A stretch of 41,351 nucleotides of DNA from a virus (Duplodnaviria > Heunggongvirae > Uroviricota > Caudoviricetes). The position numbers and the translations under genes are program-made. Positions 10,225 through 39,890 of this stretch are shown piece after piece; the stretch's first letter is position 1, and the number at the start of each line of letters is the position of its first letter. The stretch lies in IMG/VR virus record IMGVR_UViG_2711768015_000005. One strand, 5' to 3'. The notes below the pieces were generated by a model that saw only the letters and a program-made list of their open reading frames with translations, did not search any database and was not told where the DNA came from.

Positions 10225-10647
10225 ATGGCTGAAACACAGATGAGCATGTTTGGTGACAGCGAACAGCTGCACGCGCTGATTGACCGTCTGGATGATATTC
10301 CTGATGATGAGCTGAAAAAGAACTGGCCCGGCACGCTGCGGGACCTGGTTGATGTGATCAGTGCTGAACTGCACCGTCAGGGGATTGAACCTGCTCAGGC
10401 GGGAATGCTTGCCCGTAAGGTTGCAGCCGCACAGGCCGGGTACATGGGCGGGCGTGGTTATTATCTCCCGGTCGGTGAATCCCTTTTCACCGAACTGCGC
10501 AATAATGAAATTTTTTCCCGCTGGAGCCAGGGCGAAAAAATTGAAACCCTGCGCCGCCACTACCAGATGTCAGAGACGCAGATTTACTCCGTTATCCGCA
10601 ACCAGCGTCGCCTGCATCAGGAACGCACGCAGCCACGGCTTTTCTGA
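10225..10647 (+). CDS. mor: Mor/C-family transcriptional activator
   Basis: 140 aa; C-terminal HTH region YYLPVGESLFTELRNNEIFSRWSQGEKIETLRRHYQMSETQIYSVIRNQRR resembles Mu Mor/C; it is the only family member in the window and sits directly before the lysis gene. Confidence 0.8.
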   Translation: MAETQMSMFGDSEQLHALIDRLDDIPDDELKKNWPGTLRDLVDVISAELHRQGIEPAQAGMLARKVAAAQAGYMGGRGYYLPVGESLFTELRNNEIFSRWSQGEKIETLRRHYQMSETQIYSVIRNQRRLHQERTQPRLF

Positions 10648-10718
10648 TATTCCGCAAATCCTGCCCCCTTTTCCTCACGGTTACGCTGACTCAGAGAACA
10701 CCATGAGACAGCGTAACA

Positions 10719-18703: not shown

Positions 18704-18880
18704 TGGTTTAAGGTATGCAAACGTATTACCTTACCCCCTTCAGGCGCGTGTCGTGATTTTCTAACCTGTATTTAACGGGCTTTAAAATCTGCGTGAAGCG
18801 CCTTTCTCATTCCCCCCCTGTCAGCACTTTCTGAAGTCCCGCAAAACCAGCCCCAAAAATACCCGGCTTATGCTGCCGGT

Positions 18881-24989: not shown

Positions 24990-25113
24990 AGAAGCCGCAA
25001 TTGTGCTGGGGATGGTGACAAAAAGCGGCCCGGAGTGGGCGCTTAACCTCCCCTTATCGCAGCTTTACCGGCACTGCCGACAGACCGAAAAAATTCTCAG
25101 AACGAAGCAGTAA
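24967..25113 (+). CDS. Small ORF overlapping the chaperone 3' end, upstream of the tape measure gene
   Basis: 48 aa from ATG 24967 in a different frame, G-rich SD-like sequence upstream; the frame is open from 24919. Confidence 0.3.
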   Translation: MQCRDQIEEAAIVLGMVTKSGPEWALNLPLSQLYRHCRQTEKILRTKQ

Positions 25114-34932: not shown

Positions 34933-36987
34933 ATGTCAGACTCCAAGTGGAAAATGCTCTCCGCCATGCCCGGAGAGTTTTCAGTCAAGGTTGCCGGTGG
35001 CACGGTGGCATTTATTGAAAGCCCTTTCCGCCCTTCGGGTAATAAAGGGGGGATCACCTTCGCAGACTGCGTGATCCGCTTCAGCACGAAAGAGCCATTA
35101 TGGGTAATGCCGGTATCCGGTAATCCCAGTGCAGAAATCACCAGTTCAGGCGTGACTGGCATCATTCCAATCACATCTGACGTGGCCGGAACGCTCACGC
35201 CCTCCGACTGGAATGCACCGGATAACGCCGGGCCTTCCGGTAGCACGAATGGCAGCAGTTCAGAGCCGGAATATTACTTTGTTGTCATTCTCGCGGGTCA
35301 GTCAAATGGCATGGCCTACGGCGAGGGGCTGCCGTTACCGGATTCGTTTGACCGCCCGGACCCACGCATTAAGCAACTGGCACGCCGCAGTACGGTAACG
35401 CCCAACGGTACGTCGTGTACATACAACGACATCATTCCGGCAGACCACTGCCTGCATGATGTTCAGGATATGAGCGGGATAAACCACCCGAAAGCTGATC
35501 TGGCAAAAGGCCAGTACGGGACTGTCGGTCAGGGGTTGCATATTGCCAAAAAACTGCTTCCCTATATCCCACAGAATGCCGGGATACTTCTGGTGCCCTG
35601 TTGTCGTGGCGGGTCAGCATTCACCACTGGAGCCGACGGCTCATTCAGTGAGGCCAGCGGTGCTTCCGCTGATTCTTCACGCTGGGGGGCCGGTAAACCT
35701 CTGTATCAGGACCTGGTAAGCCGCACCAAAGTCGCGCTGGCGAAAAACCCGAAAAACAAACTTCTGGCTGTGGTCTGGATGCAGGGAGAGGCAGACCTTG
35801 CCTCAGGAAGCCAGCAGCATAATAGTTTATTCACGGCCATGGTTCAGCAGTTCAGAACTGACCTGGCTCCGCTTGCTGCGCAGTGCGTGAGTGGAAATGC
35901 CACCACGGTGCCGTGGATTTGCGGTGATACCACGTATTACTGGAAAAACGCTGGCACCGATAAATATGAGGCAGTATACGGTGGCTACAAAGGCAAGGAA
36001 GCACAGAAAATTTTCTTTGTACCGTTCCTGACGGATGAGAATGGACAGAGCACGCCAACGAATGCTCCGGCGGAAGACCCGGATATTGTGGCTGTCGGGT
36101 ATTACGGTGCAGCATCCCGAACCCAGGGCAGTTTTGTTTCGACACAGCGTGACAGCCATTTCAGCTCATGGGCACGCAGGGGCGTCATTTCAGACCGTCT
36201 GGCCTCAGCTATTATGCTCCATGCAGGGCGCACGGCTGAACTGATGCGTGGGCAGACCGTGACACCACCGGATGAGAAGCCGTCACCTGATACACCATCA
36301 AAACCGTCCACGCCACCCGCAGACACCACGACGATGAGTACGCTATTTGCTTACCGGGCATCTGAGTCTGAAGGACGGTTGACACCACAGGGTTGGGCTG
36401 CCGGAGGTGGCAAGGCTCAAATCGTGGATGATGCCGGAGCCAGCGGGGGTAAGGCAATGAAACTGACCAAGGAAACAGGAAGAGCCCCCTGGTACCTTGA
36501 GCATGATGCTGGTAATGGTGCGGACCTGCTGGGTAAAGGTGGTCTTGTCAGTTGTCGTTTTAAACTCGATGGCGCGCTTACGGCTAATCAGTACGCACTG
36601 GCGCTGTACTGGCCGGTTTCTGCCCTGCCGCAAGGGGTTACTCTGGAAGGAAATGCCGGTCATAACCTGCTGGCATCGTTCTACGTACAGAGCGATGCCA
36701 CAGACCTTAACGTGATGTATCACAAAGGAAACACGGCGCAGAACACGAAGCTGGGGTCATTCGGCGCATTTAATAACGAATGGCATACGCTGGGCTTCCG
36801 TTTTGCCGGTAACAACAGTATTGAGGTGACGCCGGTCATTGATGGTAAGGACGGGACACCATTCATGCTGTCGCAGTCTCCGGTCGGCACGTTTACGGCA
36901 GACAAGTTGCGCGTGACCGATATCACTAAAAATGCGACTTACCCGGTACTGATTGACAGTATCGTGGTGGAAGTGAATAACGCGTAA
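34933..36987 (+). CDS. Cargo protein: SGNH/sialate-O-acetylesterase-like domain, Pro/Thr-rich linker, lectin-like C-terminal domain
   Basis: 684 aa; esterase-type GQSN motif in VVILAGQSNGMAYGEG; linker PPDEKPSPDTPSKPSTPPADTTT; ~210-aa C-terminal domain; no signal peptide; located where Mu carries only com-mom. Confidence 0.55.
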   Translation: MSDSKWKMLSAMPGEFSVKVAGGTVAFIESPFRPSGNKGGITFADCVIRFSTKEPLWVMPVSGNPSAEITSSGVTGIIPITSDVAGTLTPSDWNAPDNAGPSGSTNGSSSEPEYYFVVILAGQSNGMAYGEGLPLPDSFDRPDPRIKQLARRSTVTPNGTSCTYNDIIPADHCLHDVQDMSGINHPKADLAKGQYGTVGQGLHIAKKLLPYIPQNAGILLVPCCRGGSAFTTGADGSFSEASGASADSSRWGAGKPLYQDLVSRTKVALAKNPKNKLLAVVWMQGEADLASGSQQHNSLFTAMVQQFRTDLAPLAAQCVSGNATTVPWICGDTTYYWKNAGTDKYEAVYGGYKGKEAQKIFFVPFLTDENGQSTPTNAPAEDPDIVAVGYYGAASRTQGSFVSTQRDSHFSSWARRGVISDRLASAIMLHAGRTAELMRGQTVTPPDEKPSPDTPSKPSTPPADTTTMSTLFAYRASESEGRLTPQGWAAGGGKAQIVDDAGASGGKAMKLTKETGRAPWYLEHDAGNGADLLGKGGLVSCRFKLDGALTANQYALALYWPVSALPQGVTLEGNAGHNLLASFYVQSDATDLNVMYHKGNTAQNTKLGSFGAFNNEWHTLGFRFAGNNSIEVTPVIDGKDGTPFMLSQSPVGTFTADKLRVTDITKNATYPVLIDSIVVEVNNA

Positions 36988-37002
36988 GCAGGATAAAAAA
37001 AT

Positions 37003-37035
37003 GCCGCCGGTAAGGGAAAACAAGAAACCGGCGGC
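37003..37035. terminator. Terminator-like hairpin after the esterase gene
   Basis: GCCGCCGGT-(15 nt)-ACCGGCGGC flanked by A-runs on the + strand, so T-runs on the minus strand. Confidence 0.45.
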
Positions 37036-37131
37036 AAAAAGATCGTTATATCCAAAGCAAAAAATGCAGTGCACCTTTTTACCTAACAGATATTACCGGT
37101 GTCAACACCATGTCAATAATTGGGAGGGATA

Positions 37132-37314
37132 ATGACATTTTTACAGCTTATTTTATTGTATTTCTGCACGGCAGTATGTGCGTTATATCTGGTGAGTGGT
37201 GGTTATAAGGCCATCAGAAATTATGTTCGCCGCAAAATTGAGGACGCAGCAGCTGAAAAACTCAGTAAAACAGCGCAGGTAACTCCGCTCCCAAAAGACC
37301 CGACCCAGCCCTGA
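37132..37314 (+). CDS. Small single-pass membrane protein
   Basis: 60 aa from ATG 37132 with GGGAGGG SD; TM helix FLQLILLYFCTAVCALYLVSGG then basic tail. Confidence 0.45.
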   Translation: MTFLQLILLYFCTAVCALYLVSGGYKAIRNYVRRKIEDAAAEKLSKTAQVTPLPKDPTQP

Positions 37315-37349
37315 TTGCAGGGCTTTATTCCCGCATAAGGAGGATATAC

Positions 37350-37604
37350 ATGCCAGAAATTAAAGGCACCGTCACTGAAGACCTGGTAAAACAGGCACTG
37401 TATTCCGGTGAAGTAAATAAGTTGCTGAAAGCGCAGGTCCGCAAGGATTTTGAGGCACAAATCGACACTTACGTTGATGAAGTGCTGGCAAAACTTATTG
37501 GGCCAGCAGTTGCGGCCAGTGATGCTGATAATGAGCCGAAAACCGACGCGCAGCCAGAGCAACCAGACCCGGCTCAGCCCGGAACTGACAGTACCATGAT
37601 GTAA
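37350..37604 (+). CDS. Small acidic protein
   Basis: 84 aa with strong SD AAGGAGG 8 nt upstream; acidic Pro/Gln-rich C-terminus. Confidence 0.5.
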   Translation: MPEIKGTVTEDLVKQALYSGEVNKLLKAQVRKDFEAQIDTYVDEVLAKLIGPAVAASDADNEPKTDAQPEQPDPAQPGTDSTMM

Positions 37605-37771: not shown

Positions 37772-38065
37772 TTAGTCCGATTCACGCTTTTGTAGAATCG
37801 TTCCCAGAATGCTATACAGCTCATTAGCCTGTTGCTCCATCATTGAGACGGAGGCTATACGGTGCAAAGTGATTTCAGGAGGTGGCACACCTCCATCTTC
37901 TTGCTGTGGAGGAAAAACATAAGATTTAATAAAAAAGTTGAAGCATATGAACTCTCCCGCACTCGAACTGTATTTGCAGGCATCTGAATAATCGGAAAAA
38001 TAATCATTATAGATTTCCGCATTTTCAATCATTTTTCGATTTCTCGTCGTTACATGATTGTCCAT
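37772..38065 (-). CDS. Hypothetical protein, divergent from com-mom, in an AT-rich segment
   Basis: 97 aa minus-strand ORF with AAGAGG SD 6 nt upstream of ATG. Confidence 0.45.
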   Translation of the reverse strand: MDNHVTTRNRKMIENAEIYNDYFSDYSDACKYSSSAGEFICFNFFIKSYVFPPQQEDGGVPPPEITLHRIASVSMMEQQANELYSILGTILQKRESD

Positions 38066-38249
38066 AGCAGCCTCTTACGCTGGCAATTAACCAATTGACT
38101 TCTATAAATTAGTTGATTTGTTTGCTTTGCGGTATTCAAATGTACAATCATTCAGCACTTATGCGTTACAGCACCGTTTAAAATTAGTGATCAAACTCAT
38201 AAATTTTCGCTAATGACATTTCGTGTTATTTGTTGTATCAATTAAATAA

Positions 38250-38280
38250 ATCAAATCGATCGTTTTTGTCGATCGATTGA
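38250..38280. promoter_or_regulatory. GATC-containing palindrome upstream of com-mom
   Basis: AATCGATCG-TTTTTGT-CGATCGATT, a perfect inverted repeat carrying two GATC sites (38258-38261, 38271-38274). Confidence 0.5.
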
Positions 38281-38321
38281 GTGATAAAGATATCAACAAC
38301 AAAGCAGGAGGTTATGCGGCC

Positions 38322-38522
38322 ATGTATCGAAACATACGGTGCCGACATTGTAACAAGCTACTGGCACGAGCCAGCTTCAGTTATCTGGAAGTTAAATGTC
38401 CGCGCTGTAAAACCCTCAATCAAATCACATCTCAGAGCGCCACAGAGCACCCCACATACACAAGGAAATCCTGTCGTGGGGAACAGAAAGCAAGTTACAT
38501 CCCGTATCATCAGCACGCCTGA
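38322..38522 (+). CDS. com: Com-like zinc-finger translational activator of mom
   Basis: 66 aa [35 protein letters not shown]... parallels Mu Com (IRCKNCNKLL...IEIRCPRCK); AGGAGG SD upstream. Confidence 0.8.
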
Positions 38523-39213
38523 ACTTATTCACTATAACGACAATATCGTCGGTTATGGCTCCCGTGAGTTACGGGTTGAGACAATAAGTTGCTGGCTGGC
38601 CCGGCTGGTCGTCGTCAATAAACATTACAGCCATCGTTTCGTAAATAATTCCTACCTTCATCTGGGCATATTTTCAGAACGGGAGCTGGTTGGCGTAATG
38701 CAATGGGGTTATGCCCTTAATCCAAACAATGGTGCACGCGTCGTAACTGGCACGCAGAACCGCGAATATATGGAGCTTAACCGGTTATGGCTGCATGACT
38801 GTATGCCGAGAAACTCCGAATCAAGGGCAATCAGTTACGCGCTCAAACTAATCAGACAACTTTATCCGCAGGTGCAGTGGGTTCAGTCGTTTGCAGATGA
38901 GCGTTGTGGCTGTCTTGGTGTCGTGTACCAGGCAAGCAATTTTGATTATGTAGGCAGTCATGAAACAACATTCTATGAACTTGATGGCGAGTGGTATCAC
39001 GAGATTTGCAAGAATGCAATCAAACGAGGAGGACAGCGAGGTGAACATCTGCGGGCTAATATCGACAGAGCCAGTGTTCATAAATTCCGTCAGTTTCGTT
39101 ACATCCGGTTTCTGGACAAGAGAGCCAGAAAACGCCTTAACACAAAGCTATTCAAAGTCCAGCCTTACCCAAAACCACAAACAGTTAAAACTGGTTTGAA
39201 AGAGAGTGAATGA
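38476..39213 (+). CDS. mom: Mom-like DNA modification enzyme; start uncertain
   Basis: Overlaps the 3' end of com in another frame as in Mu; the frame is open from 38281 and GTG 38476 is a plausible start giving ~245 aa; last gene before the right prophage end. Confidence 0.65.
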
Positions 39214-39249
39214 ACGCTTAAAAACTCATTCTAAAACTCAAAAGAAAAG

Positions 39250-39345
39250 CGCCGATTTAGTATCAAATAAGTTGCGTATCGGCGTTTTTCAGCGGTATCA
39301 AATGAAATGCAAATCGGTATCAAAAAAATCGCCGCGCTATAGACA
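39250..39345. promoter_or_regulatory. Right prophage end (attR-like) with three inverted copies of the end repeat
   Basis: TAGTATCAAAT (39259-39269), CGGTATCAAAT (39293-39303), TCGGTATCAAA (39323-39333), inverse of the left-end sites. Confidence 0.6.
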
Positions 39346-39371
39346 GCCTAAGCGGCTGCTGACCTCCCTGA

Positions 39372-39890
39372 CCATGCTGTAAATCTCTTTATCCTGGTTG
39401 TCACAGAATAAGCCCGGTAAAATACGGGCTTATGAACGACATCTCTTCTGACGACATCTTCCTGCTGAAACAGCGCCTTGCCGAACGTCAGTTGAAAACG
39501 AAACCGCTGCTGAAATCCCTGGAAAGCTGGCTGCGTGAAAAGATGAAAACCCTGTCGCGACACTCAGAACTGGCGAAAGCGTTCGCATACGCCCTGAACC
39601 AGTGGCCGGCGCTGACGTACTATGCAGATGATGGCTGGGCTGAGGCGGACAATAACATCGCTGAAAATGCGTTGCGGATGGTCAGTCTGGGCCGCAAAAA
39701 CTACCTGTTCTTCGGTTCGGATCATGGAGGAGAGCGGGGAGCGCTGCTGTACAGCCTGATCGGGACGTGCAAACTGAACGGAGTGGAGCCAGAAAGCTAC
39801 CTCCGCTATGTCCTTGACGTCATAGCCGACTGGCCGATAAACCGGGTCGGCGAACTGCTCCCCTGGCGCGTAGCACTGCCGACTGAATAA
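39372..39890 (+). pseudogene. tnpC: 3' fragment of IS66-family transposase tnpC (C-terminal ~150-170 aa only)
   Basis: ...WPALTYYADDGWAEADNNIAENALRMVSLGRKNYLFFGSDHGGERGALLYSLIGTCKLNGVEPESYLRYVLDVIADWPINRVGELLPWR matches the conserved IS66 TnpC C-terminus; in-frame stop at 39369-39371 and no N-terminal region. Confidence 0.85.

Follow-up and report, generated by a model that had tools for sequence, protein, structure and literature searches.

The stretch of DNA analysed here (41,351 nucleotides, hereafter the window) carries near its right end two overlapping reading frames that the original prediction had likened to com and mom of phage Mu, preceded by a palindrome with two Dam sites. The question that this locus raises is whether the pair is a true DNA-modification module under Mu-type translational control, and how the palindrome might act on it. 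Nearly all of a Mu-like E. coli prophage was found in the window: ISEc8 matches were located at positions 147–652 and again from 39342 (39342–39486), setting the prophage bounds at 653–39341. An apparent 4-bp duplication (GACA) marks the insertion in ISEc8; the Mu duplication is 5 bp as opposed to the 4 bp seen here, and 4 bp has also been annotated for Mu_JNE122137 (L010). Both termini of the prophage read 5'-TATA, compared with TG...CA in Mu, and each end contains three TTTGATAC(C/T) repeats, the first of which lies 18 nt in from the terminus.

The com-mom pair sits at the prophage's right end, the position that it occupies in Mu. Other E. coli chromosomes carry this right-end sequence at 99–100% identity, and the RefSeq labels there ('Com family...' and 'tRNA(Gly)-dependent adenine aminoacyltransferase Mom') have the same coordinates as those derived in this work (Table 1). 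When positions 38200–39230 alone were used as the query, 233 of the 5,426 complete E. coli genomes searched proved to carry the module, among them O157:H7 Sakai, in which it belongs to prophage Sp18 (ECs_4997/ECs_4998) and shows 94.5% nucleotide identity. Sp18 has been cited as a Mu-like phage possessing Mom and its regulator (PMC3299994); in our literature search no paper naming either ECs4997 or ECs4998 was found. The module is the same in Sp18 and has the same place in the genome, with an identical palindrome, whereas the upstream divergent ORF and the 15 bp 3' of the palindrome are different, and the insertion site is sorM for Sakai Sp18 versus ISEc8 for the window prophage. The region is hence the ordinary anti-restriction com-mom operon of an Sp18-type Mu-like E. 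coli prophage. As for its control, we consider it likely that this is a com-mom of the Sp18-type prophage with a Mu-type Com/hairpin lock and an inherited OxyR/Dam operator that is probably situated on the core promoter.

Table 1. Features of the com-mom region and its surroundings (positions are those of the window)
Feature	Positions	Strand	Description
Divergent orphan ORF	37772-38065	-	97 aa from ATG 38065; RefSeq 86 aa from ATG 38032
Regulatory cassette	38227-38485	+	Operator, com, Com-target hairpin, start-sequestering hairpin and first ~3 payload codons
OxyR tetramer operator (predicted)	38237-38273		37 bp; left half-site 38237-38251 weak; right half-site 38259-38273
Perfect palindrome	38254-38278		AATCGATCG-TTTTTGT-CGATCGATT; 9-nt arms, 7-nt spacer
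Dam site GATC-a	38258-38261		Equals Mu GATC2 and agn43 GATC-II
Dam site GATC-b	38271-38274		Equals Mu GATC3 and agn43 GATC-III; 13 bp from GATC-a
com Shine-Dalgarno (SD)	38304-38311	+	GCAGGAGG; read from sequence
com	38322-38522	+	ATG start; 66-aa CxxC...CxxC zinc-ribbon translational activator (Pfam, PHROG, Mu alignment)
Com-target hairpin	38437-38450	+	GCGC[CACAGA]GCAC; CC-N3-GAG (CC-ACA-GAG) motif at 38440-38447; position homologous to Mu
Translation-inhibition hairpin	38450-38481	+	CCCCAC (38450-55) pairs with GUGGGG (38476-81); RNAfold MFE
mom	38476-39213	+	GTG start; 245 aa; GNAT-fold tRNA(Gly)-dependent adenine aminoacyltransferase (Pfam PF25680, Mu Mom, 8bv8)

The product of com matched the Pfam family PF10122 (Zn_ribbon_Com) at 7.5e-13 and the PHROG family 'gpCom control of modification' at 2.9e-13, and it shares 44% identity with Mu Com, the four zinc Cys residues all being aligned. 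These residues (C7, C10, C26 and C29) equal the cysteines of Mu Com, and the N-terminal CxxC-N(15-16)-CxxC zinc ribbon is present. The SD of com was kept in all lineages compared. The RefSeq protein WP_014334043.1 is com at identical coordinates; the name given to it there is 'DNA-binding transcriptional regulator', and in the experimental literature Com is an RNA-binding translational activator.

Mom of phage Mu transfers glycine from Gly-tRNA(Gly) to adenine N6 in double-stranded DNA; the resulting base, N6-carbamoylmethyl-adenine, blocks many restriction enzymes. The product of mom in the window is predicted from its sequence to be a GNAT-fold enzyme forming this same base. It matched the Pfam Mom family PF25680 over the full length of the profile (1.6e-77, positions 1–202 of 202), shares 78% identity with Mu Mom and hit PDB entry 8bv8, the solved structure of Mu Mom, at 2.4e-123. 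Residues needed for the activity of Mu Mom have been listed (PMC7261163, PMC13219725): H58, Y59, R111, S124, D149 and Y159 (Mu, 241-residue numbering) are all six identical in the protein studied here, and W48, R151 and W181 are also identical in the alignment of the two Mom proteins. The HTH-like insertion of Mu Mom (residues ~175–209), which is essential for activity (PMC13219725), aligned without gaps and is highly conserved. The conserved catalytic region is thus present, every activity residue being kept, and the alignments with Mu Com and Mom identified both proteins as true homologues, in which the zinc cysteines and every catalytic residue tested are intact. The original prediction of a Com-like zinc-finger ORF overlapping a Mom-like ORF in the Mu arrangement was therefore upheld by the Pfam matches and by the identities of 44% and 78%; the overlap is 47 nt here versus 50 nt in Mu. 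One detail required correction. The mom reading frame is open over positions 38281–39213 and the identity assigned to it was right, but translation starts at GTG 38476, in agreement with RefSeq, instead of at the start of the long ORF. On the 3' side of mom, at 39250–39293, CGCCGAT...ATCGGCG followed by TTTTT forms a possible terminator with a 21-nt loop, overlapping the right-end TTTGATAC transposase-site repeats.

Translational control was addressed at the com-mom junction. In the mRNA of Mu, a Com hairpin is followed directly by a CCCAC...GUGGG hairpin with the GUG start in its stem, and the motif recognized by Com, defined by SELEX, is CC(N)2-3GAG, placed in or at the loop, with a closing C-G pair (PMC6483171). 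The Mu hairpin at the position homologous to the Com-target hairpin of the window is AUGC[CUGCGA]GCAU, with 4 bp; here three of the four stem pairs can form, with one C.A mismatch, RNAfold gives the hairpin only 2 bp, and the fold z-score is unremarkable (-1.1). Small-hairpin stems at other Mom loci read GGGC/GCCC, AGGC/GCCU, ACGC/GCGU and GCGC/GUGC. Since the stems covary across Mom loci, the structure of the Com-target hairpin is supported. The second, translation-inhibition hairpin holds the mom SD, AAGGA (38462–66), in its loop and the GUG start in its stem, and the CCCAC...GUGGG stem also occurs in Mu and Scandinavium. RNA folding of the junction gave the start-codon-sequestering hairpin that the Mu-like arrangement had led the original prediction to look for, and a Mu-type Com-target hairpin is present as well. 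By analogy with Mu, Com would bind the first hairpin and melt the second, so that Mom translation would be permitted.

Upstream of com, the arms of the palindrome (38254–38262 and 38270–38278) are 100% complementary, and GATC is present at 38258 and 38271; the perfect palindrome with two Dam sites is accordingly there as first described. The arrangement CGATCG-N(3-12)-CGATCG occurs once in the window versus 0.03 occurrences expected, and GATC itself is under-represented, with 122 sites compared with 161 expected. An 8-nt perfect inverted repeat, TTTGTTGT/ACAACAAA (38229–38236 and 38296–38303), lies on either side of the operator, its end falling at the com SD; it was kept in all E. coli lineages, yet its presence is about what chance would give for an 8-mer in 300 AT-rich bases. 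A search of Rfam gave nothing meaningful, with one sub-threshold match to IS102 (E = 0.81).

The proposed likeness to the control region of Mu mom was borne out by alignment. The two Dam sites fall on Mu GATC2 and GATC3 with the 13-bp spacing preserved: Mu has AATCGATCG-GTAATAC-AGATCGATT, an 8/9 palindrome, at this place, the sequence upstream of its com reads cGATCgaatcaattaaatcGATCggtaatacaGATCgatta, and the flanking AATCAATTAAAT aligns with the window too. The core preceding agn43 (flu), TATCGATCG-TTTATAT-CGATCGATA, equals that of the window at 21 of 23 positions, again with a GATC pair 13 bp apart and in the same OxyR register. The Mu GATC1 position reads TATC in the window and is displaced by 4 bp, and the cluster of three GATC (18 + 13 bp) is absent; the GATC at 38189 was considered as an equivalent of Mu GATC1 and rejected, being 69 bp away.

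Scoring against the OxyR consensus placed a 37-bp operator over the palindrome. Positions 38237–38273 are the best match in the window to ATAGnTnnnAnCTAT-N7-ATAGnTnnnAnCTAT, agreeing at 13 of 20 positions, a value reached by only 3 of 41,315 positions, and the best sites of the window (13/20), Mu (13/20) and agn43 (14/20) share one register. The right half-site, ATCG-TTTTTGT-CGAT, is an OxyR dyad of the ATAG-N7-CTAT kind and holds the GATC sites; the left half-site agrees at 6 of its 10 specified positions and is conserved in the E. coli lineages, against an AT-rich background. Because the region is AT-rich, matches to the OxyR consensus are inflated and several neighboring offsets reach 12/20; the score by itself is hence weak, and it is homology that carries the argument for the operator. 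A ATCGATCG-N7-CGATCGAT core precedes com in Mu, in the window prophage and in phage Chuche, and it precedes agn43 as well. The dyad was also found ahead of com in loci of Symbiopectobacterium, Pantoea and Edwardsiella; in Endobugula, Parathalassolituus and a deltaproteobacterial MAG, neither GATC arrays nor the dyad precede com. Since the core is common to elements whose activators are unrelated or diverged, and to agn43, which has none, a shared host factor, namely OxyR plus Dam, is indicated. By homology, we infer that the palindrome is an inherited methylation-sensitive OxyR/Dam operator of the Mu/agn43 type. In such an operator, the palindrome would supply one OxyR-dimer half-site (ATCG-N7-CGAT) containing both Dam sites, and a second, weaker one would lie 22 bp upstream. 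OxyR in its reduced form would bind the operator when it is unmethylated or hemimethylated and repress com-mom, and Dam methylation of both GATC sites would exclude OxyR and permit transcription.

The 25-bp palindrome was unchanged in five E. coli lineages, whereas 10 of the 15 aligned columns directly 3' of it vary and 6 bp are inserted there in CI5; identity among the E. coli copies is 92–100%, and the power of this conservation is therefore limited. That same closeness lends something to the view that a defective prophage here carries the module as a silent relic, with the palindrome kept only through recent common descent, as does the location of the prophage in a broken ISEc8 that is itself contained in another prophage remnant; moreover, many O157 prophages are defective. 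We nevertheless regard this view as very improbable. The com and mom ORFs are intact with the catalytic residues kept, and the mom genes of the window and Sakai Sp18 differ by 31 synonymous and 7 nonsynonymous codon changes, a ratio indicative of purifying selection on mom. The contrast between the palindrome and the variable columns beside it also speaks against a relic, and the dyad is common to distant elements.

A sigma-70 scan of the + strand gave no convincing promoter. Two candidates were picked by hand: TTGTCG-N19-TATCAA, which would start transcription near 38303 and have the operator on its -35 as in gtr, and ATGACA-N17-TATCAA, which would start it near 38248 and have the operator just downstream as in agn43. 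Both are without T at the last -10 position; the -35-like ATGACA persists in the Sakai lineage, in the form ATGACT, though the upstream sequence diverges. With either candidate, OxyR would occlude the core promoter. In P22 gtr, GATC pairs 13 bp apart lie inside single OxyR half-sites and their methylation abolishes OxyR binding, and the promoter-proximal pair overlaps the -35, with transcription starting 33 bp 3' of the last GATC (PMC2909390). The gtr spacing of 33 bp, when applied to the window, would put the start at about 38304. Across the loci surveyed, short (42–54 bp) and long (78–93 bp) distances from operator to com both recur.

The second candidate has a bearing on another explanation, namely that the palindrome works as a hairpin in RNA or DNA, either as a minus-strand terminator shielding the divergent ORF from antisense read-through or as a hairpin in the 5'-UTR of com-mom. 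A start near 38248 (ATGACA-N17-TATCAA) would put the palindrome in the leader, where it folds, and a terminator scan did flag a minus-strand hairpin (9 pairs, loop of 7) followed by TGATTTATTT. The stem has only 4 G-C pairs, though, its folding energy is no better than that of shuffled sequences (z = -1.0), the com SD is not occluded, and the counterparts in Mu and agn43 are without a T-run on that strand. Taken together, a hairpin function is extremely doubtful, and the OxyR/Dam operator remains the preferred reading.

The identity of the activator was also considered. The prophage has a single Mor/C-family activator (10225–10647), with 41% identity to C and 31% identity to Mor, unlike Mu, which has two (Mor and C). 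The late promoters of lys (10651–10687) and of the head genes (18838–18875) share the box CCGCAAAnCCnGCCCC-N12-GGyTTAyGCTG, with a weaker version at 25040–25075, and it is presumably to this box that the single Mor/C-type activator binds. CCCCCTT as a late-promoter motif was rejected, as it showed no enrichment. Upstream of com, neither a recognizable TTAT-N6-ATAA site nor a copy of the late-promoter box of the prophage was found, a result that does not establish independence from the activator; GGTTATGCGGCC at 38310–38321, between the SD and the ATG, was judged a coincidental resemblance to an activator box. With no other activator box visible there, the palindrome could itself be the binding site of the dimeric Mor/C-type activator, its GATC sites being incidental or modulating activator binding. 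Mor/C proteins do bind dyad-symmetric sites overlapping the -35, and the palindrome would lie at the position of an activator site if the -10 were near 38285–38296. We attach very little probability to this explanation in view of where the dyad does and does not occur. The lys and head-gene promoters share the different, C-rich box CCGCAAAnCCnGCCCC, and neither has a CGATCG dyad; the dyad is also present in Mu, where C binds an adjacent TTAT-N6-ATAA instead; and it recurs both in Chuche, a non-Mu phage, and in agn43, for which there is no phage activator. For the OxyR/Dam operator, then, its distance of only 51–64 bp from the com ATG and the lack of a detectable activator box suggest that its position probably overlaps that of the core promoter, like those of the agn43 and P22 gtr operators, whereas in Mu the operator lies upstream of an activator site; this is the least certain step of our reading.

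The operator, com and the two hairpins form a cassette that can be combined with other genes (Table 1). On the upstream side, megablast homology with about 200 E. coli genomes that have different upstream cargo begins at 38227. On the downstream side, the cassette of strain SW070917 (L033:3001-4302) is 92% identical through GTGGGGAAC, after which a 350-aa DNA cytosine methyltransferase follows and mom is absent. The cassette is demonstrably modular: its junction with this other DNA methyltransferase falls at the start-codon hairpin, where payloads are swapped. If it is indeed a portable safety lock, it would be reused for other toxic DNA-modifying enzymes, of which the SW070917 cytosine methyltransferase is an example.

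Mom genes without com are known as well (loci L003, L021, L022, L023, L024 and L027), for instance in Aeromonas phage pAEv1818, where mom lies 3' of the antiterminator Q. They share a conserved leader, located ~130 nt upstream of mom in L003, L021, L023 and L027, with a hairpin, CCCCGGAaagttgccgctcTCCGGGG, a possible ORF of ~34 codons (MGAPES...) and a CACGAGCAC stretch recalling the Com-target motif. This leader may be an alternative control element.

The divergent ORF that the original prediction had described as cargo sharing the intergenic region does exist; RefSeq starts it at 38032, and it is an orphan in a variable slot. It had no match in Pfam, PHROG or NCBIfam, its homologs amount to only 14 clusters, all from E. 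coli/Shigella and all 'hypothetical', and unrelated ORFs occupy its position in other lineages. Farther upstream, between the tail-fiber/invertase region and com, a cargo block (34933–37604) encodes a 684-aa SASA-esterase + DUF6645 protein, followed by DUF1378 and DUF826; we take this block to resemble the NanS-p esterase module located 3' of stx in Stx phages.

A bolder version of the preferred reading can be put forward. According to it, the Sp18-type com-mom would have lost its activator site and carry the OxyR/Dam operator directly on the core promoter like agn43 and gtr, Mom would be set by a heritable ON/OFF state of methylation or by titration of OxyR during phage replication in place of a C-type late activator, a minority of lysogens would be momylated, and positions 38227–38485 would constitute a portable safety lock, both epigenetic and translational. 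We think it rather unlikely that all of this holds. Whether mom expression phase-varies has been called an open question (PMC2909390), and the compact two-GATC operator of Sp18, without a visible activator box, would offer a clean natural test of it. Otherwise, the value of the present analysis beyond annotation is small, the module having been annotated in hundreds of E. coli genomes already.

Comparison with known systems defines what is shared and what is particular to this locus. Mu has in common with the window the AATCGATCG-N7-(C/A)GATCGATT dyad, the overlapping com/mom pair and a right-end location in a transposable phage. Transcription of Mu mom is governed by Dam, OxyR and the activator C (PMC3378877). 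Mu differs in having a third GATC 18 bp upstream, where the window has lost GATC1 and retains two GATC. The distance from GATC to the com ATG is -51 here versus -78 in Mu, the operator being ~27 bp nearer to com, and the elements found between GATC3 and the -10 of Mu, namely the C site TTATgccccaATAA, the -35 ACCACA and a T6 run, are without counterpart in the window, as is the -10 itself; in Mu the weak -35 and -10 stand 19 bp apart. At agn43, a third GATC lies 19 bp upstream, the operator is at or after the transcription start, and the gene controlled encodes an autotransporter, with no phage gene involved. The gtr operators of P22 and Salmonella comprise two GATC pairs and three half-sites with alternative activating and repressing positions of OxyR, in contrast to the single pair of the window. 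Chuche is an integrase-bearing, non-Mu phage in which com is coupled to a DNA methyltransferase and the GATC spacing is 18 + 13 bp. A Com zinc ribbon upstream of and overlapping a toxic DNA-modification gene has been described for FluMu (hin1523), Pnm1 (nma1821) and B3 (ORF47/48) (PMC3299994); in these com-linked modules, as in Chuche, the payload is an adenine methyltransferase, as opposed to Mom in the window. Overall, the locus is an ordinary member of a known system, and its genes, translational control and Dam/OxyR operator are textbook features of Mu.
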